NCBI GenBank assembly: GCA_031372065.1
Contig: JANMKN010000408.1
Location: 1 to 15,449, forward strand
Source: Abditibacteriaceae bacterium
Lineage (GTDB): Bacteria > Armatimonadota > Abditibacteriia > Abditibacteriales > Abditibacteriaceae
DNA: 15,449 nt
Direction: 5' to 3'
A program made the position numbers and the translations under genes. Shown here piece after piece: positions 487-15,449 of the stretch. Numbering within the stretch: the first letter of the stretch is position 1; the number at the start of each line of letters is the position of its first letter. The notes beneath the pieces are model-generated. The model did not search any database and was not told the DNA's origin. It saw nothing but the letters and a program-made list of their open reading frames with translations.

Positions 487-531
487 AGTGTGAAGTGTGA
501 GATAAACACTCCGTATTCGGCACTCTGCATT
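485..531. repeat. Degenerate heptamer inverted-repeat element
   Basis: GAGTGTG-AAGTGTG faces CACTCCG-TATTCGG-CACTCTG-CATT. This is the same heptamer type as 1964-2029 but more decayed. Confidence 0.5.
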
Positions 532-534
532 ACC

Positions 535-1719
535 ATGTCCCTTCCCTTTATTCCCACAGCTTTTGAGCGCACTGCAAAATGGATGCGGCGCGGCGGGCGC
601 GAAAGTGACATTGCGCTATCATCGCGCGTTCGTCTGGCGCGGAACCTGCGGCGCTACGAATTTCCGCATCACGCCTCACCTCAAGAACTGCTAAACGTGC
701 GTCATAAAACGTTTCTGGCCTTGGAAAACAATGTGGGCACGGCAGGCTTCAGCGAAGTGAAACTGCTGCCCTTCGAGGAATTTACCGGCTGGGAACGACA
801 AAGCCTGATTGACCGCCATCTGACTTCGCGCGAACACGTCAGCGAAGAACTCGCGCGCGGTTTGGCCGCGACGCCAGATGCCTCGCTTTCGATTTTGGTC
901 AACGAAGAAGATCATTTGCGCTTGCAAAGTCTCTTGCCCGGTTTGCAATTGGTGGCCGCTTTTGAATTGGTTGATCATGTAGATGACGCGCTGGAAAGTT
1001 ATTTCGACGTGCACGGCGGCGTGGCTTTTTCCGATGAATTTGGCTATTTGACGGCCTGTCCGACCAACGCGGGCACCGGAATGCGCGCCAGTGTGATGAT
1101 GCATCTTCCGGCTTTGGAAATTTCCAATAAAATCGAGCGCGCCCGCAAATGGGCCGAAGGCAAAGGACTCACGCTGCGCGGCACTTTTGGCGAAGGTTCC
1201 AAAGTGTGGGGCCATTTGCATCAGTTGTCGAACCAAGTCACGCTGGGTTTGGACGAAGCCGAGATTTTGATGGACGTGGAAAACGCCGCACAGGAAATTT
1301 GCATCATGGAACGACAAGCGCGTGCGGCGCTGCCGCTGCGACATTCCATCGAAGCGCGTGACCGCATTGGCCGCGCTTACGGCACATTGCGCTACGCACG
1401 GCGCATCGGTTGCCGCGAAGCCACAGAATGCCTTTCGCTTTTGCGTTTGGCGCACGAAATGAACTGGGCCAAAGGCCTGAATCGCCAGCGTTTCAATGAG
1501 CTTATGGTGTGGATTCGCCCGGCCTATTTGCAAGTTACTCATGGCCGCGCGATTCCCGGCCAAGAGCGCGACACCTTGCGCTGCGAATTGCTGGCGCCGC
1601 ACATTGCCAAGATCAAACTGGAAGCGGCCTTTCACGAAACGCCGAAACGTGAATCCCCGCCCGAAAATCCGTCTGGCGAGGATGAAACAAACGAAACCTC
1701 AAACGACGAACCCCTTTAA
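535..1719 (+). CDS. mcsB: Protein-arginine kinase McsB (ATP:guanido phosphotransferase family)
   Basis: Motifs SSRVRLARNL, VNEEDHLRLQ, GYLTACPTNAGTGMRASVMMHLP and QLSNQVTLG. ATG 535 is preferred over GTG 490, which lies in the repeat. Confidence 0.92.
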   Translation: MSLPFIPTAFERTAKWMRRGGRESDIALSSRVRLARNLRRYEFPHHASPQELLNVRHKTFLALENNVGTAGFSEVKLLPFEEFTGWERQSLIDRHLTSREHVSEELARGLAATPDASLSILVNEEDHLRLQSLLPGLQLVAAFELVDHVDDALESYFDVHGGVAFSDEFGYLTACPTNAGTGMRASVMMHLPALEISNKIERARKWAEGKGLTLRGTFGEGSKVWGHLHQLSNQVTLGLDEAEILMDVENAAQEICIMERQARAALPLRHSIEARDRIGRAYGTLRYARRIGCREATECLSLLRLAHEMNWAKGLNRQRFNELMVWIRPAYLQVTHGRAIPGQERDTLRCELLAPHIAKIKLEAAFHETPKRESPPENPSGEDETNETSNDEPL

Positions 1720-1730
1720 GGAGAACAGCC

Positions 1731-1964
1731 ATGACAGATGAAACAACTGCCGGAAAAGTGCAAATTACCATGTTGCCCGAAGGCCCCTACGAAGTAGTCG
1801 GCGAAATCGAAATGCTTGGTTTGAACGGCGAAGTTATCAAGACCAAAAAGAAGTGCTACCTGTGTCGCTGCGGCGCCTCTACGCACAAGCCCTTTTGCGA
1901 TGGCACGCATTCCAAAATCGGCTTCGACGCCGCTGCGGAAGCCGTGCCGGAAAGCAGGGAGTAA
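1731..1964 (+). CDS. CDGSH iron-sulfur domain protein
   Basis: LCRCGASTHKPFCDGTH motif and N-terminal 'GPY'. AAGGAG RBS at 1718-1723. Confidence 0.9.
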   Translation: MTDETTAGKVQITMLPEGPYEVVGEIEMLGLNGEVIKTKKKCYLCRCGASTHKPFCDGTHSKIGFDAAAEAVPESRE

Positions 1965-2029
1965 TGCGGAGTTCGGAATGCGGAGTGCGGAACGAAAACT
2001 CCGCATTCCGCATTCCGCATTCCGCACTC
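1964..2029. repeat. Heptamer tandem/inverted repeat hairpin
   Basis: Four (A/G)T(G/T)CGGA units (1964-1991), an 8-nt spacer, then four TCCGCA(T/C) units (2000-2027). It fills the whole CDGSH-coaX gap. Confidence 0.9.
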
Positions 2030-2032
2030 GAA

Positions 2033-2806
2033 ATGCTTCTCGCTCTTGATATTGGCAACACCAACATAGTTGCTGGCGTCTTTGAAGGCGCAATTTTGCG
2101 CGCGCAGTGGCGTCTGGCGACACAGCGTGATCGCACCGCCGATGAATTCGCGGTTTTCCTCAAAGTCGCGCTGGAAATCAAAGGCTTCACGTTTGGCGAC
2201 CTTGATGGCGTGGCGATTTCTTCTGTTGTGCCGTCGCTAACGCCGCAAGCCGCGCGCTTTGCCCGCGATTATTTGGAATGCGAACCTGTCGTTATCGGGC
2301 CGGAAACCGACACCGGACTCATCAACGATTATGATCGCCCACGCGAAGTCGGCGCGGATCGTTTGGTCAATGGTTTAGCGGCGTGGAAAAAATATGGCGC
2401 GGTTGTGATTGTTGATTTGGGCACCGCGACAACGGTTGATGCCGTTTCGCACGACGGTCATTATTTGGGCGGCGCCATCGCGCCCGGCATCGGCATTTCC
2501 ACCGACGCCCTTTTTCGCGCCGCTGCGCGCTTGCCGCGCGTCGAAATTACGCCGCCGCCCTGCGCTTTGGGCACCAATACCGCACATTCGATGCAATCGG
2601 GCATCGTTTTTGGCTATGCTGGGCTGATTAAAGAATTAGTAATGCGTTGCGTCGCCGAAGTCGAAGCCAAAGGCAACCCAAAGGTCACCGTCCTCGCTAC
2701 TGGCGGCCTCGCCGACCTGATTGCGCCTTTGGTTCCGGCCATTCACAAAATTGAGTCTGAACTCACGCTCGAAGGCTTGCGACTCATTTGGGAAAAGAAT
2801 CGTTAA
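2033..2806 (+). CDS. coaX: Type III pantothenate kinase
   Basis: MLLALDIGNTN start, plus VGADRLVN, VDLGTATTVD, GGAIAPG, ATGG and LTLEGL motifs. The track's extension to 1853 runs through the upstream gene and the repeat. Confidence 0.95.
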   Translation: MLLALDIGNTNIVAGVFEGAILRAQWRLATQRDRTADEFAVFLKVALEIKGFTFGDLDGVAISSVVPSLTPQAARFARDYLECEPVVIGPETDTGLINDYDRPREVGADRLVNGLAAWKKYGAVVIVDLGTATTVDAVSHDGHYLGGAIAPGIGISTDALFRAAARLPRVEITPPPCALGTNTAHSMQSGIVFGYAGLIKELVMRCVAEVEAKGNPKVTVLATGGLADLIAPLVPAIHKIESELTLEGLRLIWEKNR

Positions 2807-2925
2807 ATCTGTCTAAAATAAGAGTTATTTGTGGCCCGATAAATGCTCAAGCTTGTAATAAAAAGCCTCTCCGCTCACTCATTTCCAGTCCAGCATCTCC
2901 AGCGGATTGAGGAATTCTCCCTCTC

Positions 2926-3591
2926 ATGAAAAAACTTCGCGTTTTCATTGCCGATGATCAACAAGTCGTGCGCGAAGGTATCAAAATGCTCATCAATGCC
3001 CAGCCTGATATGGAAATTATCGGCGAAGCGGGTGATGGCGGGGAAGCACGGCGACTCTGCAAAGATTTGATGCCCGACATCGTTATCATGGACGTGTCGC
3101 TGCCCGATTTGAATGGCGCGCAAGTCACGGAGCATTTGCGCGTGGACAGTCCCCAATCGAAAGTGCTGGCGCTCAGTGCCTCTCAAGATGAAGCGCACAT
3201 TGAACAACTTCTGAATTCCGGCGCGACAGGCTATGTTCTCAAAAAAGCCATCGCCGAAGAATTAATCATTGCAATTCGCACCGTTTCGCGTGGCGGCATC
3301 CACATTGATCCTGAAATCGCCGACAAAGTTGTGAACGGCCTGCCGCTTTCTCAACACAATCACGCTTCCCTTCACAATCACGGCAACGAATCCCTCAGTA
3401 ACCGCGAGCAGGAAGTCTTGCGCTTGATCGCTTGGGGACACACCAACAAAGAAATCGCGACTCTTTTGCAATTGAGCGTGAAAACAGTGGAAAGCCATAA
3501 AACGCGCCTGATGGAAAAATTAGGCTTCGCCGCGCGCACCGATATTGTGCGCTATGCTTTGCGGCGTGGCTGGCTAAAAGAAGACTCATAG
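2926..3591 (+). CDS. NarL/LuxR-family DNA-binding response regulator (REC plus HTH); no kinase in the window
   Basis: REC domain: IADD, IMDVSLPDLNG, GYVLK. LuxR HTH: LSNREQEVLRLIAWGHTNKEIA...SVKTVESHK. Confidence 0.93.
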   Translation: MKKLRVFIADDQQVVREGIKMLINAQPDMEIIGEAGDGGEARRLCKDLMPDIVIMDVSLPDLNGAQVTEHLRVDSPQSKVLALSASQDEAHIEQLLNSGATGYVLKKAIAEELIIAIRTVSRGGIHIDPEIADKVVNGLPLSQHNHASLHNHGNESLSNREQEVLRLIAWGHTNKEIATLLQLSVKTVESHKTRLMEKLGFAARTDIVRYALRRGWLKEDS

Positions 3592-3664
3592 ACAGCCCAT
3601 AGCTAATATCAATGATTTTGCAGCGTGGTTTTACCAACGCGCAGAGGAATTTGGCGAAGAAATG

Positions 3665-3678
3665 CAGGGTTTTCCCTG
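3665..3678. promoter_or_regulatory. Candidate operator CAGGG-N4-CCCTG
   Basis: CAGGGTTTTCCCTG lies between the response regulator and the first Crp gene. The same motif recurs at 11232-11245. Confidence 0.45.
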
Positions 3679-3780
3679 ATGTAGCTCCATACGTTCTCAT
3701 GCAAAACTAACGAGGCGATTTTGGAGCAACACACTCTGCTTTTCACCCTCGCACAATCCCCTGCACTACAAAGGCATTTG

Positions 3781-4671
3781 ATGCCCAAATCAAAAGCGCT
3801 GACTTCTTCGTTGATGGTCGGCCAGATGGAAGCCAAAAACCAACATTTTCAGGCGCGCTCACCGCTTGGTTTAGTGAAGTTAGAGCCTAAATCTGACCCA
3901 ATCACCCACGAAGACCACAGCGATGCTTCCACATCAGCCTTTGCGCTGACGCCTCCTCAGAATTGGCTTTCAAATCGTCCACAAAATAGGATGCTCTCAC
4001 ATTTGCCGCACGATGTGTGGACGCGCATCCGGCCTTACATCGGGCATTCGCTGATGGTGCAAGGCCATGTAGTCATCGAACAAGGCCAGCGCGTAGAACA
4101 TATTTTTTTCCCGACAAGTGGTTTGGTGTCGCAAATTATCAGCGCGCCTTGTGGTTCGCGTGTAGAAACCGGTTTGATTGGACGCGAAGGATTATTTGGT
4201 TTAGCGGAAGGCCTAAACGATACGCCAGCAGTCACAAATTCCATCGTGCAAGTTGATGGAACGACTTGTTGGTTGCCGTCTGAAATTGTGCGCGCTGAAT
4301 TCAAGCGAAATGGGGCCGTTCAGTGCTGGTTGTTGCGTTATATGCAATGGCAAATGGCGCAAGCCACGCAAAACGTGCTTTGCAATCGCTTGCATTCCAT
4401 TGAGGAACGTTTAGCTCGTTGGCTACTCGCTGCGGAAAGTCGAATGGGCGCGAGTGCCATCACTGTTACACACCAAAATCTCGCTATGCTTCTGGGCACA
4501 CTCCGCTCACCAGTCACGATACGACTGGGCGAGTTCGAGCAACGTGGGCTGATTGAATGCAAACGGGGCCGTTTTTTTGTCTTAGACAGAACAGGTTTGG
4601 AACTCATGACCTGTCATTGCCACACCACCTTGCAGCAACTTGAAAAGCAGCATCGCTTAAATGATTTCTGA
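3781..4671 (+). CDS. Crp/Fnr-family transcriptional regulator (start uncertain: 3721, 3781, 3814 or 3826)
   Basis: QNRML..LP, FFPTSGLVS, IGREG, CNRLHSIEERLARWLL, THQNLAMLLG, and C-terminal LDRTGLE..TCHCH, typical of a widespread Crp/Fnr subfamily. Confidence 0.85.
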   Translation: MPKSKALTSSLMVGQMEAKNQHFQARSPLGLVKLEPKSDPITHEDHSDASTSAFALTPPQNWLSNRPQNRMLSHLPHDVWTRIRPYIGHSLMVQGHVVIEQGQRVEHIFFPTSGLVSQIISAPCGSRVETGLIGREGLFGLAEGLNDTPAVTNSIVQVDGTTCWLPSEIVRAEFKRNGAVQCWLLRYMQWQMAQATQNVLCNRLHSIEERLARWLLAAESRMGASAITVTHQNLAMLLGTLRSPVTIRLGEFEQRGLIECKRGRFFVLDRTGLELMTCHCHTTLQQLEKQHRLNDF

Positions 4672-4716
4672 TTGTCAGATTCCGCTGTAACCCCCAGTTC
4701 TATAAACTAATCCGCG

Positions 4717-5757
4717 ATGAAAATCGCAGGATTTAACGTTGAACCGAATTTAGTGTTGGCGCCGATGGCGGGCGTCACCAGCGCGCCGTTTCGCTTGCTA
4801 TGCCGTCGCTACGGCGCGGGCATGAGCTTTAGCGAACTGGTGTCTTCTGCCGCGCTTGTTATGGGCGGCGAAAAATCAAAAGAAAGATCGCATCAACTGG
4901 CGTGGTTTTTTGAAGAAGAACGCCCCGTTGCGGTGCAGATTTTCGGCGCCGACACCGATTTAATGCGCGAAGCGGCCACGATTGTCGCCGAAACCAAACC
5001 GGACGCCATTGATATTAATATGGGTTGCAGCGTGCCGAAAATCGCCAAATGCGGCGCCGGTTGTTTGCTGCTCAAAACGCCCGAACACGCTCAAGCCGTT
5101 ATTAAAGCGACTGTTGAAGGCGCCGCCGTGCATGGCGTGCCCGTAACAGTAAAAATGCGCGCCGGATGGGACGAAAACAACATTACCGCGCCCGAAGTGG
5201 CCCGTCGCGCCCAAGATGTCGGCGCTGTTGCGGTTTCCGTGCATCCGCGCACTGCCAAACAAGCCTTTACCGGCCATTCCGATTGGTCGGTCATTCGTCG
5301 CGTCAAGGAAAACGTCAGCATTCCCGTCATCGGCGGCGGCGATGTGCATAACGGGGCCGACGCCAAGCAAATGCTCGAAGAAACCGGCTGCGATGCCGTG
5401 ATGATTGGCCGCGCCGCGATGGGAAACCCATTTCTTTTCGCGCAAATCGCGCAATATCTCAAAGACGGCAGCGAAGCGCCCGAACCAACCGCCGACGATA
5501 AAATCAACACCGCTTTGTGGCACGCGCGCGAGTTGACCGTTCTCAAAGGCGAACACACCGCCATGAACGAAATGCGCCGCCACGCCGCGTGGTATACCAA
5601 AGGAATGCCCGAAAGTGCCCGCCTTCGTGACCGCCTGTGCCGCGTTTCCAGCATGACCGAACTCGAAGACATTTTAGCCGAAGCCTTGCGTGTCGCTCAT
5701 CAATACGAAGCCATGCGCGAAACCGGCGATATGTTAGCGGGCGCGACGTGGAATTGA
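4717..5757 (+). CDS. dusB: tRNA-dihydrouridine synthase DusB
   Basis: LAPMAGVT, VQIFG, DINMGC, PVTVKMRAGWD, GCDAVMIGRAAMGNP and MRRHAAWY motifs. Confidence 0.93.
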   Translation: MKIAGFNVEPNLVLAPMAGVTSAPFRLLCRRYGAGMSFSELVSSAALVMGGEKSKERSHQLAWFFEEERPVAVQIFGADTDLMREAATIVAETKPDAIDINMGCSVPKIAKCGAGCLLLKTPEHAQAVIKATVEGAAVHGVPVTVKMRAGWDENNITAPEVARRAQDVGAVAVSVHPRTAKQAFTGHSDWSVIRRVKENVSIPVIGGGDVHNGADAKQMLEETGCDAVMIGRAAMGNPFLFAQIAQYLKDGSEAPEPTADDKINTALWHARELTVLKGEHTAMNEMRRHAAWYTKGMPESARLRDRLCRVSSMTELEDILAEALRVAHQYEAMRETGDMLAGATWN

Positions 5758-5911
5758 ATCTTTTGATTGGGACGCGGAGCTACGCTATCTGCCCAAAGGG
5801 CACCCGAAACAGCTTTGATTTTCGCGGATTTTCTTGATCGGACGACCAAATGTATTACAACGGGTATTGGTTTTTAGGTCTGAATCCTCAAGCGCCATAA
5901 AACGATGCCTT

Positions 5912-6391
5912 TTCAGCAAAAAGCCGCGATCTTCCCGTTATTTTCTGCTCGCTCGCGGCTTTTTTGTGCAAGCACACAGAAAATAACGGGAAGATCGCGG
6001 CTTTTTGCTGCGACAGCGCACCTTTTTTTTCGCGATCTCGCAGTTATTTTCTGCGACTCGCCGTTATTTTCTGCTCACGCGCGGCTTTTTGCTGCGATGC
6101 CGCAGTTATTTTCTAACGCCTTCGCGGTTCAGAACTGTGTGCCTGCGGCTTTTTACTGCGGCAACGTGGAAAAAAGCCGCAAGCACGCAGTTATTTTCTG
6201 CGACGACGCAGATATTTTCTGCGCGCTCGCGGTTAATTTCCGCGACGACGCGGCTTTTTTCTGCGGCCACGCGGTTAATTTCTGCGCTGTCACAGTTATT
6301 TTCTCCGCCATCGCACCTTTTTTCTGCGACGTCACGGTTATTTTCTGCATTACCTCACCTTTTTTCTGCAAACTCGCAGTTTTAAACGGGA
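5912..6391. repeat. Array of about 23 degenerate palindromic 21-bp units (consensus core CGCAG-TTATTTT-CTGCG)
   Basis: Loop starts are at 5917, 5938, 5959, 5980, 6001, 6022, 6044, 6064, 6085, 6106, 6128, 6149 and 6170, then every 21 bp from 6191 to 6380. The array includes a perfect 34-bp inverted repeat (5914-5947 / 5977-6010). Confidence 0.9.
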
Positions 6392-6431
6392 AAGGCAAGA
6401 GGGCTTGGCAGACGGACAACACAAAAAGGCG

Positions 6432-6461
6432 CCTTGATATTACGAACAATCAAGGTAAACT
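6432..6461 (+). promoter_or_regulatory. Possible sigma70-type promoter of tdh-kbl with an overlapping dyad
   Basis: TTGATA (6434-6439), a 16-nt spacer, then TAAACT (6456-6461). It is overlapped by CCTTGAT-N10-ATCAAGG. Confidence 0.35.
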
Positions 6462-6473
6462 GAGCGACGATTT

Positions 6474-7502
6474 ATGAAAGCACTGGCTAAACAACACGCG
6501 GAGCGCGGCTTATCGCTCATTGATGTGCCTGAACCGGAAATTGGCATCAATGACGTGCTGATTCGCGTTGATCGCACCGGCATTTGCGGGACGGATTTGC
6601 ACATTTACAATTGGGACGAATGGGCGCAGAAGACTATTCCAGTTCCGATGGTTGTTGGCCACGAATTTGTCGGCGAAATCGTCGAAGTCAGCTCCAATGT
6701 GCATGATTTTTACGTCGGCGATGTGGTTTCGGCTGAGGGCCACGTTGTTTGCGGCCATTGTCGCAATTGTTTGGCGGGAAGGCGGCATTTGTGCGCCGAT
6801 ACCAAAGGTATCGGCGTCAATCGGCCCGGCGCGTTTGCCGAATTGATTTCCGTCCCGCAAACCAATGTTTGGCATCACGAAAAAGAAATTGACCGCGATG
6901 TGGCGGCGATTTTCGACCCGTTTGGCAACGCTGTTCACACGGCGCTTTCGTTCGATGTTTTGGGCGAAGATGTGCTGATTACCGGCGCCGGGCCGATTGG
7001 CATCATGGCTGTCGCGATTGCCAAACACGCGGGCGCGCGTTATGTCGTAATTACCGATGTGAATGATTATCGCTTGAATTTAGCCAAGCAAATGGGCGCT
7101 ACGGTGGCGCTTAATGTCAAAAACGGCAATTTAAGCGAAGTCAAACAGCAACTGGGCTTGAAAGAAGGCTTTGATGTCGGCCTTGAAATGTCCGGCAACG
7201 CGCAAGCCTTTTGCGGCATGATTGACGCCATGTGTCACGGCGGAAAAATCGCCATGCTCGGCATTCCGCCGACGCAGTTCGCTATTGATTGGAACAAAGT
7301 CGTTTTCAATATGCTGACGATTAAAGGCATTTATGGCCGCGAAATGTATGAGACTTGGTATAAAATGACGGTCATGCTGCAAAGCGGGCTGGACATTAAG
7401 CCGGTCATCACGCATCGCTTTCATTACACCGAGTTTGAGCAAGGCTTCGCCGCCATGAACAGCGGACAAGCGGGCAAAGTGATTTTAAATTGGAAGGATT
7501 AA
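6474..7502 (+). CDS. tdh: L-threonine 3-dehydrogenase
   Basis: [29 protein letters not shown] zinc site, [20 protein letters not shown]. Adjacent to kbl. Confidence 0.97.
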
Positions 7503-7605
7503 TAGAACACGGGTTTAACGGAAACGACACGGGTTTTCACGGAAAAATCTATCAACAAACCGTGTAAATCTGTGTCTTTTCTGCGTATGAAATCCGTGTT
7601 CTATT
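7501..7605. repeat. Long intergenic palindrome with AATAGAAC...GTTCTATT termini
   Basis: Perfect 12-bp terminal inverted repeat AATAGAACACGG / CCGTGTTCTATT. The arms are built from about four ACGG-centred 9-11-nt sub-repeats. Confidence 0.85.
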
Positions 7606-7611
7606 CTTCAA

Positions 7612-8796
7612 ATGAATTCTCATTTCACAGAGCATCTTAAAAAGCAACTCAGCGATATTCGCGCCGCTGGAACTTATAAAACCGAGCGCGTAATTACCAC
7701 GCCGCAGGACGCGCATATTAAAGTGGCGGGCGGGCGCGAGGTGCTGAATATGTGCGCCAATAATTACCTCGGTTTGGCCGAAAACCCCGACGTTATCGCG
7801 GCGGCGCATCGCGCTTTAGATGAATGGGGCTACGGTTTGTCGTCGGTGCGCTTCATTTGCGGCACACAAAGTTTGCACAAGCAATTGGAAGCGAAACTCA
7901 GCGAGTTTCTCGGCACCGAGGACACGATTCTTTATTCCTCCTGCTTCGATGCCAACGGCGGCTTGTTTGAAACCATTTTAGGCGCCGAAGACGCCGTGAT
8001 TTCCGACGAATTAAACCACGCCAGCATCATTGACGGCGTGCGTTTGTGCAAAGCGCAGCGCTTTCGTTACAAAAACAAGGACATGACTGATCTTGAAGCG
8101 CAATTGCAGGCTGCGCAAAACGCGCGCTTTCGATTAATCGCGACGGATGGCGTGTTTTCGATGGACGGCACCATCGCCGATTTGAAATCCATTTGCGATT
8201 TGGCCGACAAATACAAAGCCCTTGTGATGATTGACGATTCGCACGCTGTTGGTTTTATCGGCGCACGCGGGCGCGGCACCCATGAATACTGCGACGTGAT
8301 GAATCGCGTGGATATTATCACCGGCACGCTCGGCAAAGCGCTCGGCGGCGCCAGCGGTGGCTACACCAGTGGACGTAAAGAGATAATCGAACTGCTGCGC
8401 CAGCGCTCGCGGCCTTATTTATTTTCCAATACGCTCGCACCGCCGATTGCCGGTGCCTCGCTCAAAGTTTTAGAATTGCTTTCATCGTCACTGGAATTAC
8501 CTATTAAATTGGACGGCAACACGCGATTCTTCCGCGAAGGCATGACACAACTCGGCTTTAACATTGTGCCGGGAATTCATCCGATTACACCCGTCATGCT
8601 CGGCGATGCCGCGCTTGCCACCAAAGTCGCCGATGCCTTGCTCGAAAAAGGCGTTTACGTCATCGGCTTTTCGTTTCCCGTTGTGCCGCAAGGCAAAGCG
8701 CGCATCCGCGTGCAAATTTCCGCCGCTCATTCGCAGGGCGATTTGCAATTTGCGTTAAGTGCTTTCGGCGAAGTGAAAAACGAGATGAATCTTTAA
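7612..8796 (+). CDS. kbl: Glycine C-acetyltransferase (2-amino-3-ketobutyrate CoA ligase)
   Basis: [51 protein letters not shown] (PLP lysine) and [11 protein letters not shown] motifs. Confidence 0.97.
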
Positions 8797-8802
8797 TTCA
8801 TG

Positions 8803-8952
8803 AAACACAAAGAACACAAAGGTGGCACAAAAAACACTAAGATGACAACAGCAACGACCGTCAAGGCGCTTTTCTCTCAACATTCACCTTGCAAAACCAA
8901 TTTTCAATTTTTCCTTCGTGTTTTTTGTGCCACCTTTGTGTTCTTTGTGTTT
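8803..8952. repeat. Perfect 35-bp inverted repeat built from ACACAAAG-like sub-repeats
   Basis: 8803-8837 (AAACACAAAGAACACAAAGGTGGCACAAAAAACAC) is the exact reverse complement of 8918-8952, with an 80-nt spacer. Confidence 0.92.
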
Positions 8953-9765
8953 AATCTGTCTATGAGTCAACAAGTTCAAGCCGCGCCAGCGGTGGTCAAT
9001 CCGGCAATTAATCCGAAGGCGGCGCGTTCGGTGCATTTGGGTTATCCGGCGCCCGAAGGCACGTTGTTTTACAACGAAGCGACGGTGGAAGAATCGGTGC
9101 CCGGCAGCTATTTTATGGCGTGCGGTTTTCATCGCGGCTATTTTGGCATTCAGGAACTCGGCAACGGCAAAAAGGTGGTCTTGTTTTCAGTTTGGGACCC
9201 GACCAAAGGCGATAATCCGAACGCTGTGGCGCAGGAACACCAAGTGGAAGTCTTGAGCCAAGGCGAAGGCGTTGAAGTGTCGCGTTTTGGCGGCGAAGGC
9301 ACGGGCGGCAAAAGTATGTGGAATTACGATTGGAAAGTCGGCAACACTTACAAATTCCTCGTATCGGCCAAAGTGGACGGCGATAAAACCACCTTTGCCG
9401 GTTACTTTTTCGTGCCGGAGCAGCATCGCTGGCAACAAATGGCGACATTTCGCACCGCAACCGGCGGCGCGCCGCTCAAAGGTTATTATTCGTTTGTCGA
9501 AGATTTTCGCCGCGATGGAAAAAGCGCGGAAGAAATTCGTCGCGCGCGTTTTGGCAATGGCTGGATTCAAACCTTAACCGGCGATTGGATCGCTTTGCGC
9601 CGCGCGCGTTTTACCGCTGATGGCAACACGCAAATGCACATTAACGCAGGAGTTTCCGGCGAGGCGTTTTACTTGCAAAACGGTGGCGCGACGAAGAATA
9701 TCACTCCCCTACTCACTATATTGGAACGGCCTTTAAGCGGGCTTGATTTGCCGGAAATCAAATAG
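8842..9765 (+). CDS. DUF3472-like protein, probably exported (start uncertain: 8800, 8842 or 8962)
   Basis: ARSVHL.Y, FYNE.TV, SYFMACGF..GYFGIQ, VLFSVWD, FGGEGTGGKS and YSFVEDF resemble DUF3472 proteins. VQA-A could be a signal peptidase site. Confidence 0.75.
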   Translation: MTTATTVKALFSQHSPCKTNFQFFLRVFCATFVFFVFNLSMSQQVQAAPAVVNPAINPKAARSVHLGYPAPEGTLFYNEATVEESVPGSYFMACGFHRGYFGIQELGNGKKVVLFSVWDPTKGDNPNAVAQEHQVEVLSQGEGVEVSRFGGEGTGGKSMWNYDWKVGNTYKFLVSAKVDGDKTTFAGYFFVPEQHRWQQMATFRTATGGAPLKGYYSFVEDFRRDGKSAEEIRRARFGNGWIQTLTGDWIALRRARFTADGNTQMHINAGVSGEAFYLQNGGATKNITPLLTILERPLSGLDLPEIK

Positions 9766-9768
9766 TGA

Positions 9769-9863
9769 ATAGAACGCGAATTTCGCAAATTGCCGCTAAT
9801 TAGCGCAAATCTTTCTGAAAAATTTGCGTAGATTCGCGCTTATTTGCGAAATTTGCGTTCTAT
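9769..9863. repeat. Long intergenic palindrome with ATAGAAC...GTTCTAT termini
   Basis: The outer arms 9769-9790 and 9842-9863 are complementary at 21/22 positions (the exception is a G-T pair). Each arm has four CGCnAAT sub-repeats. Confidence 0.88.
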
Positions 9864-9874
9864 GAAAACAGCCA

Positions 9875-10723
9875 ATGAATACTTCCCTCGCTCCTCGTCC
9901 CAAACTCGCCATTTCTTCTTATTCTTACTGGCATTTTCGTGATCCAAAAATTCCAATAGAAGGCGTTATTGACCGCGCGGCGGCTCTGGGCGTTGAAGGT
10001 GTTGAAATTCTTCATCGTCAAATGGACAGCGAAGACAAAAGCTATGTGCAAAATCTCAAGCGCCGCGCTTTTGTCAATGGCTTGGATTTGATTTGCCTTT
10101 CGATTCATCAAAATTTCGTCTCGCCCGACAAAGAAAAACGCCAAGAGCAAATTGACCATACAGTGCGCTGCATTGAACTGGCATATGCGCTCGGCATTCC
10201 GTGCATTCGCATCAATTCGGGGCGTTGGAATACCGTCGCTTCGTTCGATGAACTGATGGCTTTGCGCGGCATTGAGCCGCCGATTGCAGGTTACAACGAA
10301 GACGACGCTTACAATTGGTGCATCGAATGTATGAACGCCTGCATGAGCAAAGCGCAAGAGTGCGGCGTGCTTTTGGCGTTGGAGAATCACTGGGGCTTAA
10401 CGCGCGAACCCGAAGGCGTTTTGCGCATCGTGGACGCCGTGAATTCGCCGTGGCTTGGCGTTTTAATGGATACCGGCAACTTTCTCGAAGCGCCTTACGA
10501 CAAACTCGAAATCATGGCACCGCGCACGGTTTTTGTGCAAGCCAAAACCTATTTTGGCGGCGGCGAATGGTATACGCTTGACCTTGATTATCATCGCATC
10601 GCTGCCATTTTGCGCGCTGTGAATTTCACTGGCTACATTTCACTGGAAATGGAAGGCAAAGAAGACCCCGATAGCGCCGTGCCAAAAAGCATTGAATTGC
10701 TGAGGCAAGCGTTTGATATTTAA
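9875..10723 (+). CDS. Sugar phosphate isomerase/epimerase (xylose-isomerase-like TIM barrel)
   Basis: GVEGVEIL, LALENHWG, DTGNF and GYISLEMEG metal-binding pattern. Confidence 0.88.
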   Translation: MNTSLAPRPKLAISSYSYWHFRDPKIPIEGVIDRAAALGVEGVEILHRQMDSEDKSYVQNLKRRAFVNGLDLICLSIHQNFVSPDKEKRQEQIDHTVRCIELAYALGIPCIRINSGRWNTVASFDELMALRGIEPPIAGYNEDDAYNWCIECMNACMSKAQECGVLLALENHWGLTREPEGVLRIVDAVNSPWLGVLMDTGNFLEAPYDKLEIMAPRTVFVQAKTYFGGGEWYTLDLDYHRIAAILRAVNFTGYISLEMEGKEDPDSAVPKSIELLRQAFDI

Positions 10724-10737
10724 GACCCCCTGAGATG

Positions 10738-10832
10738 AGCCACTACGCTTAGTTCGGCAAAAACGACGCTATTTTGGCCAAGAATTGCGTTGTTTTCGCG
10801 CTTGTTTTTGCGCCGCAGAAGGCGTAGCGGCT
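10738..10832. repeat. Imperfect nested inverted repeat (structured intergenic element)
   Basis: AGCCACTACGCTT / AGGCGTAGCGGCT (11/13) encloses AAAACGACGC...GCGTTGTTTT around TTGGCCAA. Confidence 0.55.
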
Positions 10833-10889
10833 ATTTCCCCCTGTTTCAAAACAACGCGGACGGGTAATAAGAAAACAGGAGGATTTATC

Positions 10890-11177
10890 ATGCATCCCAT
10901 TGTTATTCTGTTCCTGCTGTTTGCCGCGTTGGGCGTCGGTTATTTTCTGTGGGCCACCAAATCGGCCCTTGTCCTTGGCCCGCTGACCGCTTTGCGCGCA
11001 CAATTTGGCCTGTCAGACGGCGTGGTTGTGAAAATCGTCGTCGGAATTGTCGCGCTTTACATCCTTTATCAAATTTACGCCCTCGTCCAAACAGCGATGC
11101 ACAAACGTCAGGCCGATCAGCGCCTGCGCGACAACATGAAAGCCCAACAAGACAACCAATACACCAATCGTCGCTAA
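10890..11177 (+). CDS. Small hypothetical membrane protein (95 aa, two hydrophobic helices)
   Basis: AGGAGG RBS upstream of ATG 10890, two hydrophobic segments and a basic/polar tail. Confidence 0.7.
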   Translation: MHPIVILFLLFAALGVGYFLWATKSALVLGPLTALRAQFGLSDGVVVKIVVGIVALYILYQIYALVQTAMHKRQADQRLRDNMKAQQDNQYTNRR

Positions 11178-11229
11178 ATTCATTCAGCGGCACTATTCAG
11201 CGAATTCCCCTAATTACAGGCCGATTTCC

Positions 11230-11247
11230 TTCAGGGAATTCCCTGAA
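11230..11247. promoter_or_regulatory. Perfect 18-bp palindrome TTCAGGGAATTCCCTGAA (candidate operator)
   Basis: Exact dyad. A degenerate copy, TTCAGCGAATTCCCCTAA, is at 11196-11213. The core matches 3665-3678. Confidence 0.55.
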
Positions 11248-11345
11248 TTATCCATTTTCAGCCCAAAAATCATTGCTCAAAGCGTTCGCCTGTGCAATAA
11301 TGGCGCTATGTTCTGTGCTGCCGTCCAACTCTTGATGATTTGACC

Positions 11346-11597
11346 CTGAAACAGACTGTTCAAACAGCAAAGCAGACTGTTCAAACAGCAAAGCAGACTG
11401 TTCAAACAGCAAAGCAAACTGTTCAAACAGCAAAGCAAACTGTTCAACGCTTGAAACACACTGTTCAAGCGCTGAAGCAAACTGTTTGATGGTCAAAGCA
11501 AACGTCTTAACGCTTGAAACAAACGTCTCAAGGCTTCAAGCAAACGTTTCAACGCTTGAAACAAACAGCGAAACCGTTTCAATGTTTGCTTCAAGCG
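11346..11597. repeat. Array of 12 degenerate 21-bp units (idealised core TTGAAAC-AAAC-GTTTCAA)
   Basis: Exact 21-bp register from 11346. Units 2-5 are nearly identical (GCAAAGCARACTGTTCAA). The last unit (11577-11597) is inverted. Confidence 0.9.
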
Positions 11598-11660
11598 TTT
11601 TGTAGTATTGGTGGGGAAATCATTTTGTAGTTCGATTATTTTGCGAGGGGATGAGCCGCT

Positions 11661-12353
11661 ATGACCGAGGATTCGTCTGCCGCTGTATTGAGTGCAATGC
11701 CGTTGTTTCAGGGATTACCTGAGGCAACATTGAAGTATGTCGCCGACCACATGGAACGCCGCTGGTTCCCCAAGGGCATCACCTTATTAATGAAGCAGGA
11801 ACGCGGCCACAGCATTCTTTTTATCGAAAAGGGCCTCGCACGCGTGTGCGATAAAAGTTGCAAAAAAAATGAAGTTTTGATTGCTTTGTTGGGGCCGGGC
11901 GAGGTCATCGGCGAGATTCACGCTTTGGACGGCGAAGGCCACTCGGCGGATGTCATCGCCGCCCTTGATACCACTTGTTGGTTCATAGAAAAGAAAGTTT
12001 TCCTTGAATGTCTGCAAAAATTCCCCGATTTGATGATGAACCTGCTACGCCTAACGGCTAAGCGTTTGCGTCAATCCACAAATCAAATCGCCTTATTATC
12101 CACGCAGGACACACCGGGCCGACTCGCGCGCCAATTACAAATTTTAGGCGACCAATGTGGCGTTCCCACCGACGATGGCGGCATCGAAATCCCTCTTCCG
12201 ATTACGCAAGGCGATTTAGCCGCCTTAACCGGCACATCCCGTCAAAGCATCAACGCCGCCTTCACCCAATTTCGCTCGTTAAAGGCCGTTGATTACCGCA
12301 ATTGCCACTTCGTTATCCTTCGTCCCGACCTTCTCGAACAGCGTTGCCGCTGA
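11661..12353 (+). CDS. Crp/Fnr-family transcriptional regulator
   Basis: cNMP-binding-like domain (PLFQGL, LGPGEVIGEIHALDG..HSADVIA), C-helix RLRQST...RLARQL, and HTH ITQGDLAALTGTSRQSINAAF. Confidence 0.92.
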   Translation: MTEDSSAAVLSAMPLFQGLPEATLKYVADHMERRWFPKGITLLMKQERGHSILFIEKGLARVCDKSCKKNEVLIALLGPGEVIGEIHALDGEGHSADVIAALDTTCWFIEKKVFLECLQKFPDLMMNLLRLTAKRLRQSTNQIALLSTQDTPGRLARQLQILGDQCGVPTDDGGIEIPLPITQGDLAALTGTSRQSINAAFTQFRSLKAVDYRNCHFVILRPDLLEQRCR

Positions 12354-12365
12354 AATTCGCCCGAT

Positions 12366-12427
12366 TGTCAAAAATTTGACAGGGGGGTTGTCAAAAATTT
12401 GACAGGCACCCTGTCAAGTATTTGACA
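12366..12427. promoter_or_regulatory. Three tandem TGTCA-N6-TGACA boxes, 23-bp period (putative Crp-family operators)
   Basis: 12366-12381 TGTCAAAAATTTGACA, 12389-12404 identical, and 12412-12427 TGTCAAGTATTTGACA. Confidence 0.8.
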
Positions 12428-12446
12428 GCGAAACGCTGGACTTCTC

Positions 12447-12455
12447 TGAGATAAT
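12447..12455 (+). promoter_or_regulatory. Candidate extended -10 element (TG-A-GATAAT)
   Basis: It lies downstream of the third box. AGGAG RBS at 12477-12481 precedes ATG 12488. Confidence 0.4.
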
Positions 12456-12487
12456 CACATTGTCGTTCCGATTATCAGGAGAATTCC

Positions 12488-13141
12488 ATGCCCGATAGCG
12501 ATACGCCGCCAGACCCATTTGGCGATTTACTTACCAATTTCAACGACAAATTACAAAATGATGCCACCAAATACGGCGTCACGGCGGACGAATTAGACAA
12601 GCTCAACGAACTGGCGACGACCTATGTCACGAAGCGCCAGACCAAACGGGACAAAGCGCGCGAAGCCAATGCCGCAACAGCGGCGCTGAACACCGTAACC
12701 AAATCGGCCAGACCCTTTGTGAGCAAATTGCGGCAACGCATGAATTTGCACCCGGAGATGACCGACGAAAGCCGCCAGATTTATGACTTGACGCAACGTG
12801 GCGGCGCACGACCAACCTTGCAGTTGCCGGACGAAGCGCCGCTTTTGCGCCTCGATTTCGGCACACGCGGACGCATGACCATCCACGCCGGCCCCACCCC
12901 CGGCCAAGCCCGACGCAATGGCAAACCCAAAGGCGCTGTCGGCATTCTCGTGCAATGTCACGAAGGCGGCGTCCCGACCAGCGATAGCGAATGGCAACAT
13001 CTCGCTCAAGTCACCAGTTCACCGGTGACCCACCAACCCAGTAGCGGCACTCACACCTTCGCCTACCGTGCCTGCTACGTTGACCGCAAAGGCAATCGCG
13101 GCCCGTGGAGCCAAAGCGCCACCGGCACGATTTTGGGGTGA
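12488..13141 (+). CDS. Hypothetical protein: N-terminal helical region plus C-terminal fibronectin-III-like beta domain
   Basis: Good RBS. The N-terminal half is amphipathic helical. The C-terminal half has KP.GA.G, WQHLA and YRACYVDRKGNRGPWS, the last being a typical FN3-like closing motif. No signal peptide. Confidence 0.75.
   Translation: MPDSDTPPDPFGDLLTNFNDKLQNDATKYGVTADELDKLNELATTYVTKRQTKRDKAREANAATAALNTVTKSARPFVSKLRQRMNLHPEMTDESRQIYDLTQRGGARPTLQLPDEAPLLRLDFGTRGRMTIHAGPTPGQARRNGKPKGAVGILVQCHEGGVPTSDSEWQHLAQVTSSPVTHQPSSGTHTFAYRACYVDRKGNRGPWSQSATGTILG
12986..13138 (+). repeat. Direct repeat copy 1 (3' end of the hypothetical gene)
   Basis: 12986-13110 aligns with 14129-14252 with about 11 substitutions and 1 gap by manual alignment. 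Weaker similarity continues to about 13138 / 14279. Confidence 0.92.
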
Positions 13142-13163
13142 GGAGAAATCCGAAGAGGTTACA

Positions 13164-14120
13164 ATGGCACTTGGAGATGGAATCCGCAGAGATGGCATTC
13201 GTCGCAACATTGCGGCAGTTGATCCCGCAGAGAGAGCATTGCTTCGTGATGCCCTGCTTGAATTAAACCGCCGATTTTTCCTTGGAGGCAGAACCGACAC
13301 TCCAATTCCAGGTGGCGTCAGTTGGTGGTTCAAGCAAGATGAAATCCACCAGGCGACTCATGTGCATGGAGGCCCCGAATTCGTGCCGTGGCATCGAGAA
13401 CTCGTCAATCGAATGGAGCAGATGCTTCGGCAAATCAACCCGCAGCTTTCCCTGCACTACTGGGATTGGACCCAAGACCCTAGGGCCATTCCGAATGCCA
13501 ACTTGGGGGGAGGAACCAGAGGGACACTCAATCTGTTCACGCCGGACTTCATGGGCTACGGAGGTTCCACAAGACAGGTCATCGGTCCGCCTTGGCAGAA
13601 TGCTGCAGCGCCTTGGCGCAATGACGGATTCTACGTTCCGACGGCGAATCCTGACCGAGAAACATCTGACAACCCAGCAGACCCACCAAAAGCAGTGTTC
13701 CGGAGTGTTGCTGGAAATCCAGCTAACATTGCAGACGACCAAGACATCTTGGACGCGGTTGATTTTTCCGAAATGCGATTGCGATTGGAACTCGTTCACA
13801 ACGCCATGCATGGTTTCGTTAATATGGGCAGCCAGCACACATCTTTCAGGGATCCGTTTGTATTCCTCCTGCACTCGAATGTAGATCGTCTGTTCGCTCT
13901 TTGGCAAACCAACCCCATGCATCCTGAGCGATTGAATGCGAACACGGTTTATGGTTCAGAAAGTGACAACGCAGGTTTGAACAGTGGCATTGAACCATGG
14001 TCAGGCGTGCCAGCCACCGTCAGACCTTTTGCACCTCCAGAGAACCAACAGGTCGCCAAGACCTACAAAGACCCTACAGTAGTCAATCCACCCGATTACG
14101 ACACCAATCTTGGTGCCTAA
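13164..14120 (+). CDS. Tyrosinase-family (type-3 dicopper) protein
   Basis: CuA region IHQATHVHGGPEFVPWHR, then YWDWT, and CuB region HNAMH...M...SFRDPFVFLLHSNVDRLFALWQ. GAGG RBS upstream of ATG 13164. Confidence 0.9.
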   Translation: MALGDGIRRDGIRRNIAAVDPAERALLRDALLELNRRFFLGGRTDTPIPGGVSWWFKQDEIHQATHVHGGPEFVPWHRELVNRMEQMLRQINPQLSLHYWDWTQDPRAIPNANLGGGTRGTLNLFTPDFMGYGGSTRQVIGPPWQNAAAPWRNDGFYVPTANPDRETSDNPADPPKAVFRSVAGNPANIADDQDILDAVDFSEMRLRLELVHNAMHGFVNMGSQHTSFRDPFVFLLHSNVDRLFALWQTNPMHPERLNANTVYGSESDNAGLNSGIEPWSGVPATVRPFAPPENQQVAKTYKDPTVVNPPDYDTNLGA

Positions 14121-14128
14121 TCAACAAA

Positions 14129-14279
14129 AGCGAGTGGCAACATCTCGCTCAAGTCACCAGTTCACTGGTGACTCACCAACCACGTAGCGGCACTCCCCTT
14201 TAGCCTACAGTGCCTGCTACGTTGACCGCAAAGGCAATCGCGGCTTGTGGAGTTTTCACTCCACAAGAGCGATTATGGG
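14129..14279 (+). pseudogene. Direct repeat copy 2: degenerate fragment of the 3' end of the 12488-13141 gene
   Basis: It encodes SEWQHLAQVTSSLVTHQPRSGT, then a 1-nt deletion, then AYSACYVDRKGNRGLWS in the shifted frame. Confidence 0.85.
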
Positions 14280-14313
14280 CAATGAAAAACAAAATTTGCT
14301 GAAAAGGAATATC

Positions 14314-15449
14314 ATGAACACCAAATTCCAAGTCGAAAACTTGTTAGCGAAGAATCTTCAGAAAAAAGCGGCCCGCTGCGGTTTGCTGCTTGTTGTTGCC
14401 TCGTTGTCCGCAACTTGCACATGGACAGAACCGGCCTCGGCGGCAGAGAACGGAAACCAAGCCAATACTGATGTCACCATCAATCTGCCTGCAACACCCG
14501 GAGAATCTACCGTCACTCGCACACAAAAGGACAAAGACGGAAAAGAAACCACCGATACAATCGTCCAAAGCATCCCAGAGCCTGAACCAGATGAGCCATC
14601 GTCTCCACCGGATCCAGAAAAGGCTCAAGTGAGACTAAATATTTGGGCAATTCAAATTGCGGGAAATCGGGGAAAAGACTTGACGGAACAGGTGCTTAAG
14701 GCAAATGAAGCGGTTTCAAAGGTGCAGTCTCAGATAACTGCCATTCCTTATGCTTGGGCTGACGCAGTGCGATTGCATGGGACAGATACGGATTTCAGTG
14801 GTTACAATAAATATGTCCTAAAGGGACTACATGATCTTGGTTTAGATGTCCGGACCAACCGTCAACCAACTTTAATCGAAACCGTCATTTTGACCGGTGC
14901 TGCAAATTATGAAACGCGGACGAAGATTATATTAGAATTAGAAAATCAGATGGGAGGAGTCAAATTAACAAACTTGCGGAATGTGTTTCATGTAGATTCT
15001 GACCCTAAGAATCTTGGACAGGAAGATGTTAAGAACATTCGACGCATCAAGTCAGAACATGAAACTCTTCTAAGAGTTTCAACTAACTTAAAAAGTGGCA
15101 CTGACAAAAGGAAAGCTTATTACAACGGCATCGCAGATGCCCAACTAAAAGCAGCCTTAGTAGAAGGCCTAACCAAAGATGTCAATGACATCTTTCTTAC
15201 TCCGCTTTTAACAAATTTACAAAACGGCGCGGGTATCACCTCGAAAGCCAAAGGAATCTCATTTGTTGGTGAAACGAGTTTGGTAGTATCTGATGGTAAA
15301 GAGGGCATCCAAGACACCAAATTAAGAGGATATGTTAATACTGCACTCCCGCCAACGGTCAGCATCGCAGACCTGATGGAAGGTCTAAAAGCACCAAACT
15401 TTCTTGCCAAACTCGAAAAATTAGCCCCGCAACCGACGCCAATTTTTAC
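14314..15449 (+). CDS. Large secreted protein, 3'-truncated; possibly a divergent secretin-like (type II/III secretion system) protein
   Basis: Manual translation from ATG 14314 (AAGGA RBS) is stop-free to the window end, over 370 codons. It has a signal peptide KKAARCGLLLVVASLSATCTWTEPASA-A, a Pro/acidic linker, then AQVRLNIWAIQIAG, reminiscent of the first secretin strand. The secretin call is tentative. Confidence 0.75.
   Translation, partial: MNTKFQVENLLAKNLQKKAARCGLLLVVASLSATCTWTEPASAAENGNQANTDVTINLPATPGESTVTRTQKDKDGKETTDTIVQSIPEPEPDEPSSPPDPEKAQVRLNIWAIQIAGNRGKDLTEQVLKANEAVSKVQSQITAIPYAWADAVRLHGTDTDFSGYNKYVLKGLHDLGLDVRTNRQPTLIETVILTGAANYETRTKIILELENQMGGVKLTNLRNVFHVDSDPKNLGQEDVKNIRRIKSEHETLLRVSTNLKSGTDKRKAYYNGIADAQLKAALVEGLTKDVNDIFLTPLLTNLQNGAGITSKAKGISFVGETSLVVSDGKEGIQDTKLRGYVNTALPPTVSIADLMEGLKAPNFLAKLEKLAPQPTPIF

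Follow-up and report, generated by a model that had tools for sequence, protein, structure and literature searches.

Why should unrelated genes line up behind the stop codon of one conserved gene, with a piece of that gene's own end repeated among them? The question is raised by a 15,449-nucleotide (nt) stretch of DNA from an Abditibacteriaceae bacterium of the phylum Armatimonadota (contig JANMKN010000408.1, positions 1 to 15,449), which we call the window and which is one entire contig of a 6.14-Mb, 410-contig genome (G000). Toward its end the window carries, all in one orientation, a tandem array with a 21-bp period, a gene for a Crp/Fnr-family regulator, three operator-like boxes, a gene for a helical protein with a fibronectin type III (FN3)-like domain, a tyrosinase gene, a dead copy of the FN3-like gene's 3′ end (hereafter, a stub), and a large open reading frame (ORF) within which the contig ends. 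An original prediction, made from the letters of the window, had listed these parts in this order, and all of them are present where it placed them. It went on to propose a regulated expression platform in which the 3′ end of the FN3-like gene serves as an integron-like entry point for cargo genes, and it allowed that a single chance duplication could account for the repeat. The reading that we favor, with a probability of about 60%, is that the locus is a variable chromosomal slot, that is, a homology-anchored insertion hotspot behind a probable Class II Crp promoter, and that the process behind it is of a known kind.

A conserved gene followed by variable cargo

The FN3-like gene (12488–13141, plus strand) stops 22 nt before the start of the first cargo gene, which encodes a tyrosinase domain (13164–14120, plus strand; Pfam, 1.6e-24) and ends 8 nt before the stub. 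The stub (14129–14280, plus strand) is a 152-nt copy of the last 51 codons of the FN3-like gene, 90.4% identical to it over 125 nt, and dead as a coding sequence by virtue of a frameshift (a 1-nt deletion) and a stop codon. The second cargo gene (14314–15449, plus strand) begins 33 nt past the stub, encodes at least 378 amino acids (aa), and runs off the contig end. Purine-rich runs resembling ribosome-binding sites (RBSs) precede both cargo genes, as predicted; the predicted distance of 25 to 35 nt from repeat to cargo start fits the large ORF and not the tyrosinase gene.

Judged by identity and GC content, the window's cargo is foreign. The closest plasmid-borne matches of the tyrosinase come from Variovorax (72% identical) and Rhodococcus (65%), and the second ORF has a low GC content (0.45, with 0.41 at third codon positions, versus 0.53–0.62 in core genes). 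The latter has no match in Pfam, NCBIfam, PADLOC, or PHROGs and no usable match in the Atlas; a hydrophobic N-terminal stretch, seen by eye, is the basis for its earlier description as secreted. In 698 longer proteins (E up to 1e-60, in a search that covered longer forms only), the counterpart of the window's tyrosinase is the N-terminal domain; the window's version stops two codons past a motif at which all 30 of the longer relatives inspected continue into further domains. Such truncation, immediately ahead of the stub, fits an illegitimate junction. At the other end of the tyrosinase, the N-terminal motif DGIRR is doubled (13176–13205), with different synonymous codons in the two copies; the doubling, present in none of the 30 relatives printed, is possibly a junction between two alleles.

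Among 40 relatives searched, only one genome of the same genus (G003) has a close ortholog of the FN3-like gene, and a profile search of 27 genomes of the family returned the same two genomes, in which the locus is seen in context. In G003, the flanking genes, a shorter and diverged array, the Crp gene, three boxes, and the FN3-like gene (72% identical) follow in the same order. The cargo is wholly different and is interspersed with two further 3′-end copies, stubs A and B. Specifically, an NlpC/P60-like gene (a weak Pfam match, E 0.026) comes first and stub A next; two ORFs (136 and 481 aa) separate stub A from stub B, past which lie two more (283 and 429 aa) and a GH19 lysozyme-like gene. 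The gaps ahead of cargo measure 18, 33, and ~42 nt. Three of these six cargo ORFs have no stub in front. Every cargo ORF seen at the locus, in either genome, is co-oriented with the FN3-like gene; none encodes an integrase, none of 11 proteins of the locus is matched by PADLOC, and the only one matched by PHROGs is the GH19 protein. The NlpC/P60-like gene is split (L007:12383–12801, L008:1–411) by an insertion element, presumably IS3-like, whose terminal inverted repeats and 4-nt target duplication link the two contigs L007 and L008.

The different cargo and the two additional 3′-end copies of G003 rule out a single chance duplication. The variability of the cargo and the recurrence of stubs at this locus are real. 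The expectation that the downstream genes would vary between relatives is borne out, and the further repeat copies that were anticipated occur in G003, with no third copy in G000. To this extent the original prediction is supported: the upstream module and the site are conserved, and the co-oriented cargo behind them differs entirely.

Traces of further loci come from other data. The metagenomic protein P0008, known as a protein sequence, begins with residues 155–187 of the family, then a frameshifted gene end (by hand reading), and then an unrelated ORF, and is, as far as its sequence tells, likely a fourth stub. The protein P0003 and the Crp homolog P0166 lie on one 7,182-nt contig, which is probably a third locus. 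A single short contig of 151 nt from another study is identical to the last 116 nt of the window's gene, the alignment ending at the stop codon. Contigs from other studies contain no joint between gene end and stub, and such contigs cannot show its absence. In 31 genomes of the class, clear DNA copies of the repeat occur in G003 only, with one 27-nt match in G022; two metagenome scans and one viral scan gave no matches.

Gene-end stubs across the genome

Is the end of the FN3-like gene a special point of entry? In G000, 27 of 3,882 predicted genes are followed within 6 kb by a noncoding copy of their final 150 nt; as controls, middle segments gave 1 such case and 5′ ends, sought upstream, gave 7. 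Curation started from 28 rows, of which six were dropped (three tandem paralogs on C368, a doubtful ORF on C280, and two copies less than 300 nt from their gene), and two were added. The resulting set comprises 24 stubs at 23 genes, window included, namely 22 unrelated genes and the FN3-like gene. More than 20 core and accessory genes are thus affected, including, by our reading, ackA-, nuoI-, rluD-, and gatA-like genes, and multiple stubs follow at least two other genes (several each on C67 and C168). The inserts ahead of the curated stubs measure 0.4–2.7 kb and lie in both orientations, at least 6 of the 23 others being reversed relative to their gene. By eye, they contain toxin–antitoxin-like, Fic-like, restriction–modification-like, and membrane ORFs, and the other stubs of the genome have no junction motif in common. 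For the ackA-like gene, an empty site is preserved in genome G002, where the downstream gene is contiguous and the 226-nt end is present in one copy; G000 has the insert and the stub. We consider stubs with inserts likely to be ordinary recombination scars, which are common in this genome.

The stubs also bear on where the inserted DNA came from. Of the 259 substitutions in the 23 stubs outside the window, 133 fall at third codon positions and 132 are synonymous, an excess which argues that these stubs are diverged alleles and not products of pure decay. At the FN3 locus, the window stub matches its own gene at 91% and that of G003 at 81%, and for stub A the figures are 94% with the G003 gene and 84% with the window's; since each is closest to its own gene, the two arose separately. 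For stub B, identity to the window's gene is 88% over 83 nt and identity to the gene of its own genome 85.5% over 62 nt. Stub B retains a family-type tip (WSESA) that has been replaced in the G003 gene and is still found in a member of that gene's 90% cluster. Stub B, and likewise the 23 other stubs pooled, look like alleles whose origin differs from that of the rebuilt gene; for the window stub this is not evident. The boundaries shift as well, the window stub spanning approximately codons 167–217, stub A 147–192, and stub B 187–214. Around one motif, stubs A and B have ~14 nt in common, and a later insertion may have divided what was once a single stub. Hypermutation by a diversity-generating retroelement is rejected because the changes lie mostly at C and not at A.

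That the gene of the same genome is the closest match for two of three stubs, and that the window stub lacks the synonymous excess, would suit a purely local history. The gene and its neighbor would have been duplicated in tandem, and deletion and an unrelated insertion would have followed, with no transfer between strains; the extreme form is one chance duplication. We think this improbable. Three stubs in two genomes, together with the likely fourth in P0008, exclude one event, and the tip of stub B fits the family better than it fits its own gene. Moreover, the synonymous excess in the other stubs suggests foreign alleles, and the cargo itself is foreign by identity and GC content.

The homology-anchored reading would account for these features as follows. 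Incoming DNA from a relative, bearing both the end of the gene and cargo of its own, would pair with the resident FN3-like gene. Either the far end of the incoming DNA would join illegitimately inside the resident gene, upstream of the stop codon, or a circle would integrate by one crossover. The gene would thereby be rebuilt, its old end left behind as a stub, and the old cargo pushed downstream, all by homology-anchored recombination of the host. The slot would be hit repeatedly because a Crp-activated Class II promoter likely transcribes whatever is inserted there together with the FN3-like gene.

Integrons, islands, and anchored arrays

Like integron cassette arrays, the locus has one upstream promoter, co-oriented cargo ORFs with their own RBSs, and repeated structured spacers, and new genes probably enter at the head. 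In contrast to integrons and to integrase-less attC clusters, its spacers derive from a protein-coding gene, have no fixed ends, and are absent between several cargo genes. A true integron is available for comparison: contig C351 of G000 (C351:1–3900) holds a complete one, with IntI divergent from an array of short ORFs and long canonical attC-type repeats, running off the contig end. Its repeats have the form YAAC...GTTR and no similarity to the stub.

Could a site-specific recombinase, from an integron or an island, act in trans and insert cargo at a core in the gene's 3′ end? IntI (TIGR02249) is above cut-off in all four genomes of the genus, on contigs other than those of the locus (G000:C351, G003:C103). 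Stubs A and B, meeting at one motif, could be a single split stub, and stub B folds as one long imperfect hairpin. Nevertheless, we judge a recombinase in trans to be improbable. The contigs that bear the locus (C265, C228, and C248) have no integrase match, with the proviso that the window's contig ends inside the second cargo gene. The stubs lack the paired YAAC and GTTR ends, the long hairpin of stub B has no GTT/AAC ends, and the stubs share neither sequence with the integron repeats nor a boundary with one another; the other stubs of the genome, with no junction motif by eye, conform. Given no linked IntI, no attC ends, three different boundaries, and stubless cargo in G003, the locus is, on sequence grounds, neither an integron nor an attC cluster. 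The special integron-like entry point of the original prediction is accordingly not supported: stub and insert recur at 22 unrelated genes, their boundaries differ, and real integron sites are unrelated to them.

Genomic islands integrate at the ends of tRNA, dusA, or rlmH genes. Islands of this kind (at tRNA/tmRNA genes, at dusA, or, for staphylococcal cassette chromosomes, at rlmH) resemble the locus in that the target gene is rebuilt, its end is duplicated past the insert, and insertions accumulate in tandem. The inserts here differ in having no integrase, in duplications of ~80–150 nt with shifting ends, and in the recurrence of the pattern at 22 unrelated genes. Neither an integrase inside the insert nor a short, fixed att core was found at the locus.

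The closest parallels lie in arrays attributed to homology-facilitated illegitimate recombination (HFIR), such as the immunity arrays of the Vibrio type VI secretion system (T6SS) and the orphan 3′ cassettes of Rhs and contact-dependent inhibition (CDI) genes. These share with the locus a conserved upstream anchor with variable DNA behind it, orphaned pieces with variable boundaries between units, and the lack of a dedicated recombinase. Insertion anchored in this manner is proposed for T6SS immunity arrays, and cited for orphan Rhs strings, in a published account (PMC5361080). At our locus, the anchor is conserved and the foreign DNA variable between G000 and G003, and the nonhomologous junction varies with no fixed core. 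The differences are that the cargo consists of separate ORFs after a stop codon, and not of swapped toxin tips or immunity genes; that the stub copies the very end of the anchor gene; that one stub has perfected hairpins; and that the anchor sits behind a predicted Crp promoter.

Hairpins in the gene end and the stub

The coding 3′ third of the FN3-like gene contains a string of hairpins (12929–13129, plus strand) that is kept between the two intact genes. For the structure that the two genes share there, 1 of 120 simulations was as good, compared with 29 of 120 for the 5′ third and 47 of 120 for the middle. Two compensatory pairs and GCAA/GAAA loops link the genes. Relative to synonymous shuffles, the z-scores of the 3′ thirds are −1.7 and −1.6, and some unrelated homologs score lower; a general structuring of FN3 3′ ends is not supported across 25 genes.

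In the window stub, 24 substitutions and one deletion improve these hairpins, yielding stems of 9, 13, and 10 bp. The 10-bp stem has two double changes, and its loop is the reverse complement of the GAAA of stub B. The stub folds at −68.2 kcal/mol, compared with −55.6 for the gene and −40.9 ± 4.1 for random placements of the same changes, none of which (0/600) was as good. The G003 stubs lean the same way more weakly, 38 of 600 (A) and 20 of 600 (B) random placements being as good for RNA of the plus strand. The middle of the window stub (14166–14209) rests on the window's assembly alone, and in one public contig the letters there are of the gene type, which most likely reflects a collapsed bubble in the assembly; the part of the stub that other contigs confirm shows the effect by itself (5/2,000 on the plus strand, 0/2,000 on the minus strand). 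In all three stubs, homology starts at the foot of a predicted hairpin. The perfected hairpins differ from stub to stub: the window stub forms four or five separate hairpins, and stub B forms its single long one.

Perfection of this sort could stem from template-switch mutation or from selection on an RNA leader. According to one report (PMC8794818), template switching leaves its signature in perfected stems, compensatory changes, and inverted loops. We suppose that the imperfect palindromes of the noncoding stub were likely perfected in this way, with or without selection for stem-loops in the mRNA ahead of the cargo.

A more ambitious alternative is that the locus is a dedicated cassette platform. 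The hairpin string would then be a selected RNA or single-stranded DNA element (an mRNA leader, a processing or stabilizing signal, or a single-stranded recombination site), and each stub plus cargo would be a selected, self-contained unit, open to addition, excision, and exchange under Crp control. Duplicated gene ends would furnish leaders to the cargo, giving recombinase-free, Crp-controlled cassettes separated by domesticated gene-end spacers. The improved folding of the stubs, the effect in the contig-confirmed part, the compensatory pairs and loops between the intact genes, and the homology starts at hairpin feet all speak for it, as does the uniform orientation of the cargo at this locus, set against the reversed inserts elsewhere. 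We hold both the platform and the selected hairpin element to be unlikely, for template switching yields the same pattern without selection. Furthermore, only the window stub starts out strongly palindromic; the 23 others begin from less palindromic DNA and so are a weak control for hairpin perfection. The modest shuffle scores, the different hairpins of the different stubs, the stubless half of the G003 cargo, and the lack of any Rfam match in the window, L007, or L008 point the same way.

Several observations weigh against the homology-anchored reading. The folding z-score of the window stub is −6.7, compared with −1.9 to +1.0 for the 23 others, none of which reaches −2, and the conservation of hairpins between the 3′ thirds of the intact genes is not predicted by a pure scar model. 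Unlike the other stubs, the window stub has few synonymous substitutions (7, versus 19 nonsynonymous). No empty or donor site for the FN3 locus was seen in the two genomes that provide context, and the empty-site comparisons for the nuoI-like and rluD-like genes are uninformative since the flanks are not syntenic. The duplicating geometry has to be inferred, as classical HFIR usually deletes recipient DNA. Finally, the uptake genes ComEC and DprA are present and also pass in 10 of 14 control genomes, so their presence says little.

A Crp-type regulator and its predicted promoter

The promoter part of the homology-anchored reading starts from the regulator. The protein encoded at 11661–12353 (plus strand) belongs to a genus-level clade with the recognition helix SRQS, and both Crp/Fnr Pfam families pass the cut-off (cNMP_binding, 3.8e-17; HTH_Crp_2, 1.6e-13), consistent with a cyclic-nucleotide-binding fold and a Crp-type helix-turn-helix. 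No NCBIfam equivalog reaches its cut-off. The protein has a His at what we take to be the position of the cAMP-binding Arg of E. coli Crp.

Directly after the regulator's own stop codon come three TGTCAA-N4-TTGACA boxes (12366–12427), which start at 12366, 12389, and 12412, with a period of 23. They are the sole three perfect copies in the 6.14-Mb genome, and they supply its sole 23-spaced pairs even when up to three mismatches are allowed; with the triple box unique, no genome-wide Crp-box regulon was found in G000. The same layout occurs at five loci of the genus (the window, L007, L167, L110, and L169), each with two or three boxes spaced by 23 bp and ending GACA-GC. All five have a −10-like hexamer 21–22 nt past the last box; in the window it is the predicted −10 hexamer GATAAT (12450–12455, plus strand), 22 nt past the last box and recognized from box spacing. 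A generic sigma-70 scan found no promoter at the locus, GATAAT included. This spacing would place the last box near −41.5, which is the Class II Crp position given in one source (PMC5957442). The 16-bp palindrome, with its TGTC...GACA ends, also resembles the CooA consensus site, TGTCGGCNNGCCGACA, as given in another (PMC545781). The window departs from Class II Crp and CooA promoters in having two or three boxes, counting all genus loci, with 23-bp spacing, directly behind the regulator gene. Together, these features predict a probable Class II Crp-type activator promoter driving the FN3-like gene and the cargo, and cargo in the slot would likely be co-transcribed from it. In the papers searched, we found none linking CooA-type TGTCA sites with a recognition helix.

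The regulator and its boxes also occur elsewhere. In genome G001, two degenerate boxes and then the gene of an astacin-like metallopeptidase stand behind the Crp ortholog, and FN3 gene and array are both absent, which indicates from gene order that the Crp-and-box unit is separable from both. A box-pair scan of GTDB genomes returned 33 loci, and a single one, of the window type, has an FN3 gene and a close Crp. At L110:3069–7217, a perfect box pair stands upstream of a gene whose 1,338-aa product matches Secretin_N weakly, below cut-off; the gene is likely a further target of the Crp clade. In G003, a repetitive extragenic palindromic (REP)-like element separates the Crp stop codon from the boxes (L007:11300–11560), with related copies at L007:5583–5637 and 6035–6087. 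A TGTCA-N6-TGACA repeat of 23-bp period is present in at least nine copies, with up to seven units in tandem, in one Prolixibacteraceae genome (L105, L106, L112, L113, L115, L117, L118, L121, and L128); it looks like a dispersed repeat family unrelated to the locus.

The FN3-like family and its arrays

The FN3-like gene is one of 25 full-length paralogs in G000. Its 217-aa product has no Pfam family above cut-off, and Pfam fn3 itself gives no match. Its AlphaFold model (pLDDT, a per-residue confidence score, 94.7) has helices at 10–98 and seven strands at 119–215, the top Foldseek matches are FN3 domains, and PF00041 occurs in 32% of the members of its Atlas cluster (score 0.95). As modeled, the protein is a long helical hairpin joined to a seven-stranded FN3-type sandwich. 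It belongs to a wide, unnamed family with 364 representatives at E up to 0.001 and matches in 51 of 401 genomes of the phylum.

The array (11349–11566) is noncoding and has ~10.5 units, of which the first 4.6 copies are 98% alike and the early ones contain a CTGTT-CA-AACAG dyad; an inverted repeat with 24-bp arms (11551–11599) closes it. Nineteen of the other 24 paralogs have an array of period 21, 42, or 63 within 700 nt upstream, compared with 24 of 567 random ORFs (600-nt windows), and the array, by this count, goes with the family generally. The window paralog shares protein family and array period with these genes and differs in two respects. Of the 25 genes, no other has a Crp gene and boxes intervening between itself and an array, and no other has a 3′ stub: behind the remaining 24, up to 10 kb of sequence contains no copy of the gene's own end, though several of these genes lie near contig ends. 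Beyond the genome, 40 loci of more distant homologs show no Crp gene or TGTCA box within 3 kb upstream and no 3′ copy beyond a marginal 36-nt match, contrary to the association that had been forecast. The parts therefore form one module in the sense that G003 keeps their order, and not in the sense of a fixed unit, as the arrays accompany the family at large and the Crp gene with boxes occurs without FN3 gene or array in G001. The Crp-and-box unit was likely inserted between the FN3-like gene and the array that is normal for such genes. In a more distant genome, two C-terminal halves of helical and FN3 genes lie 1.4 kb apart with no mutual DNA similarity (L077:2739–3035 and 4167–4433) and may be broken genes or old stubs.

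Arrays of this period are abundant in G000, where 268 have a period of 21 or 42, compared with 0–12 at control periods, each with its private sequence; 20 of the 268 adjoin curated FN3 genes. Others lie upstream of several small uncharacterized families of approximately 150, 240, and 330 aa (for example, on C102, C107, C125, C166, and C277). A second, degenerate 21-bp array in the window (5914–6390), with a 43-bp-arm inverted repeat, sits between dusB-like and tdh-like genes with no adjacent FN3 gene; related arrays occur on C69, C88, and C232, and G003 carries a different element there. We found no description, in the papers searched, of 21-bp arrays upstream of FN3 genes or of Abditibacteri fibronectin repeats.

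Elsewhere in the window, REP-like inverted repeats lie between genes and at gene starts (1956–2029, 7507–7616, 8779–8976, and 9769–9863), with related elements abundant in the genus. A LuxR-type response regulator gene and a second, unrelated Crp-family gene (2926–4671) lie 7–8 kb upstream of the module.

What the locus tells

On the homology-anchored reading, this is a locus at which capture by gene ends recurs behind a probably regulated promoter and so comes to mimic an integron. A probable regulon of Crp type in an unstudied genus, marked by a clear promoter layout, also emerges from the analysis. If the remodeling of the hairpins is mutational, the window stub would document with unusual clarity how template switching recurred naturally in a bacterial chromosome; if it is selected, dead gene ends would become functional spacers. 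Finally, stubs bracketing small inserts are common in this genome, at more than 20 genes, and they offer a countable footprint of integrase-free gene capture.

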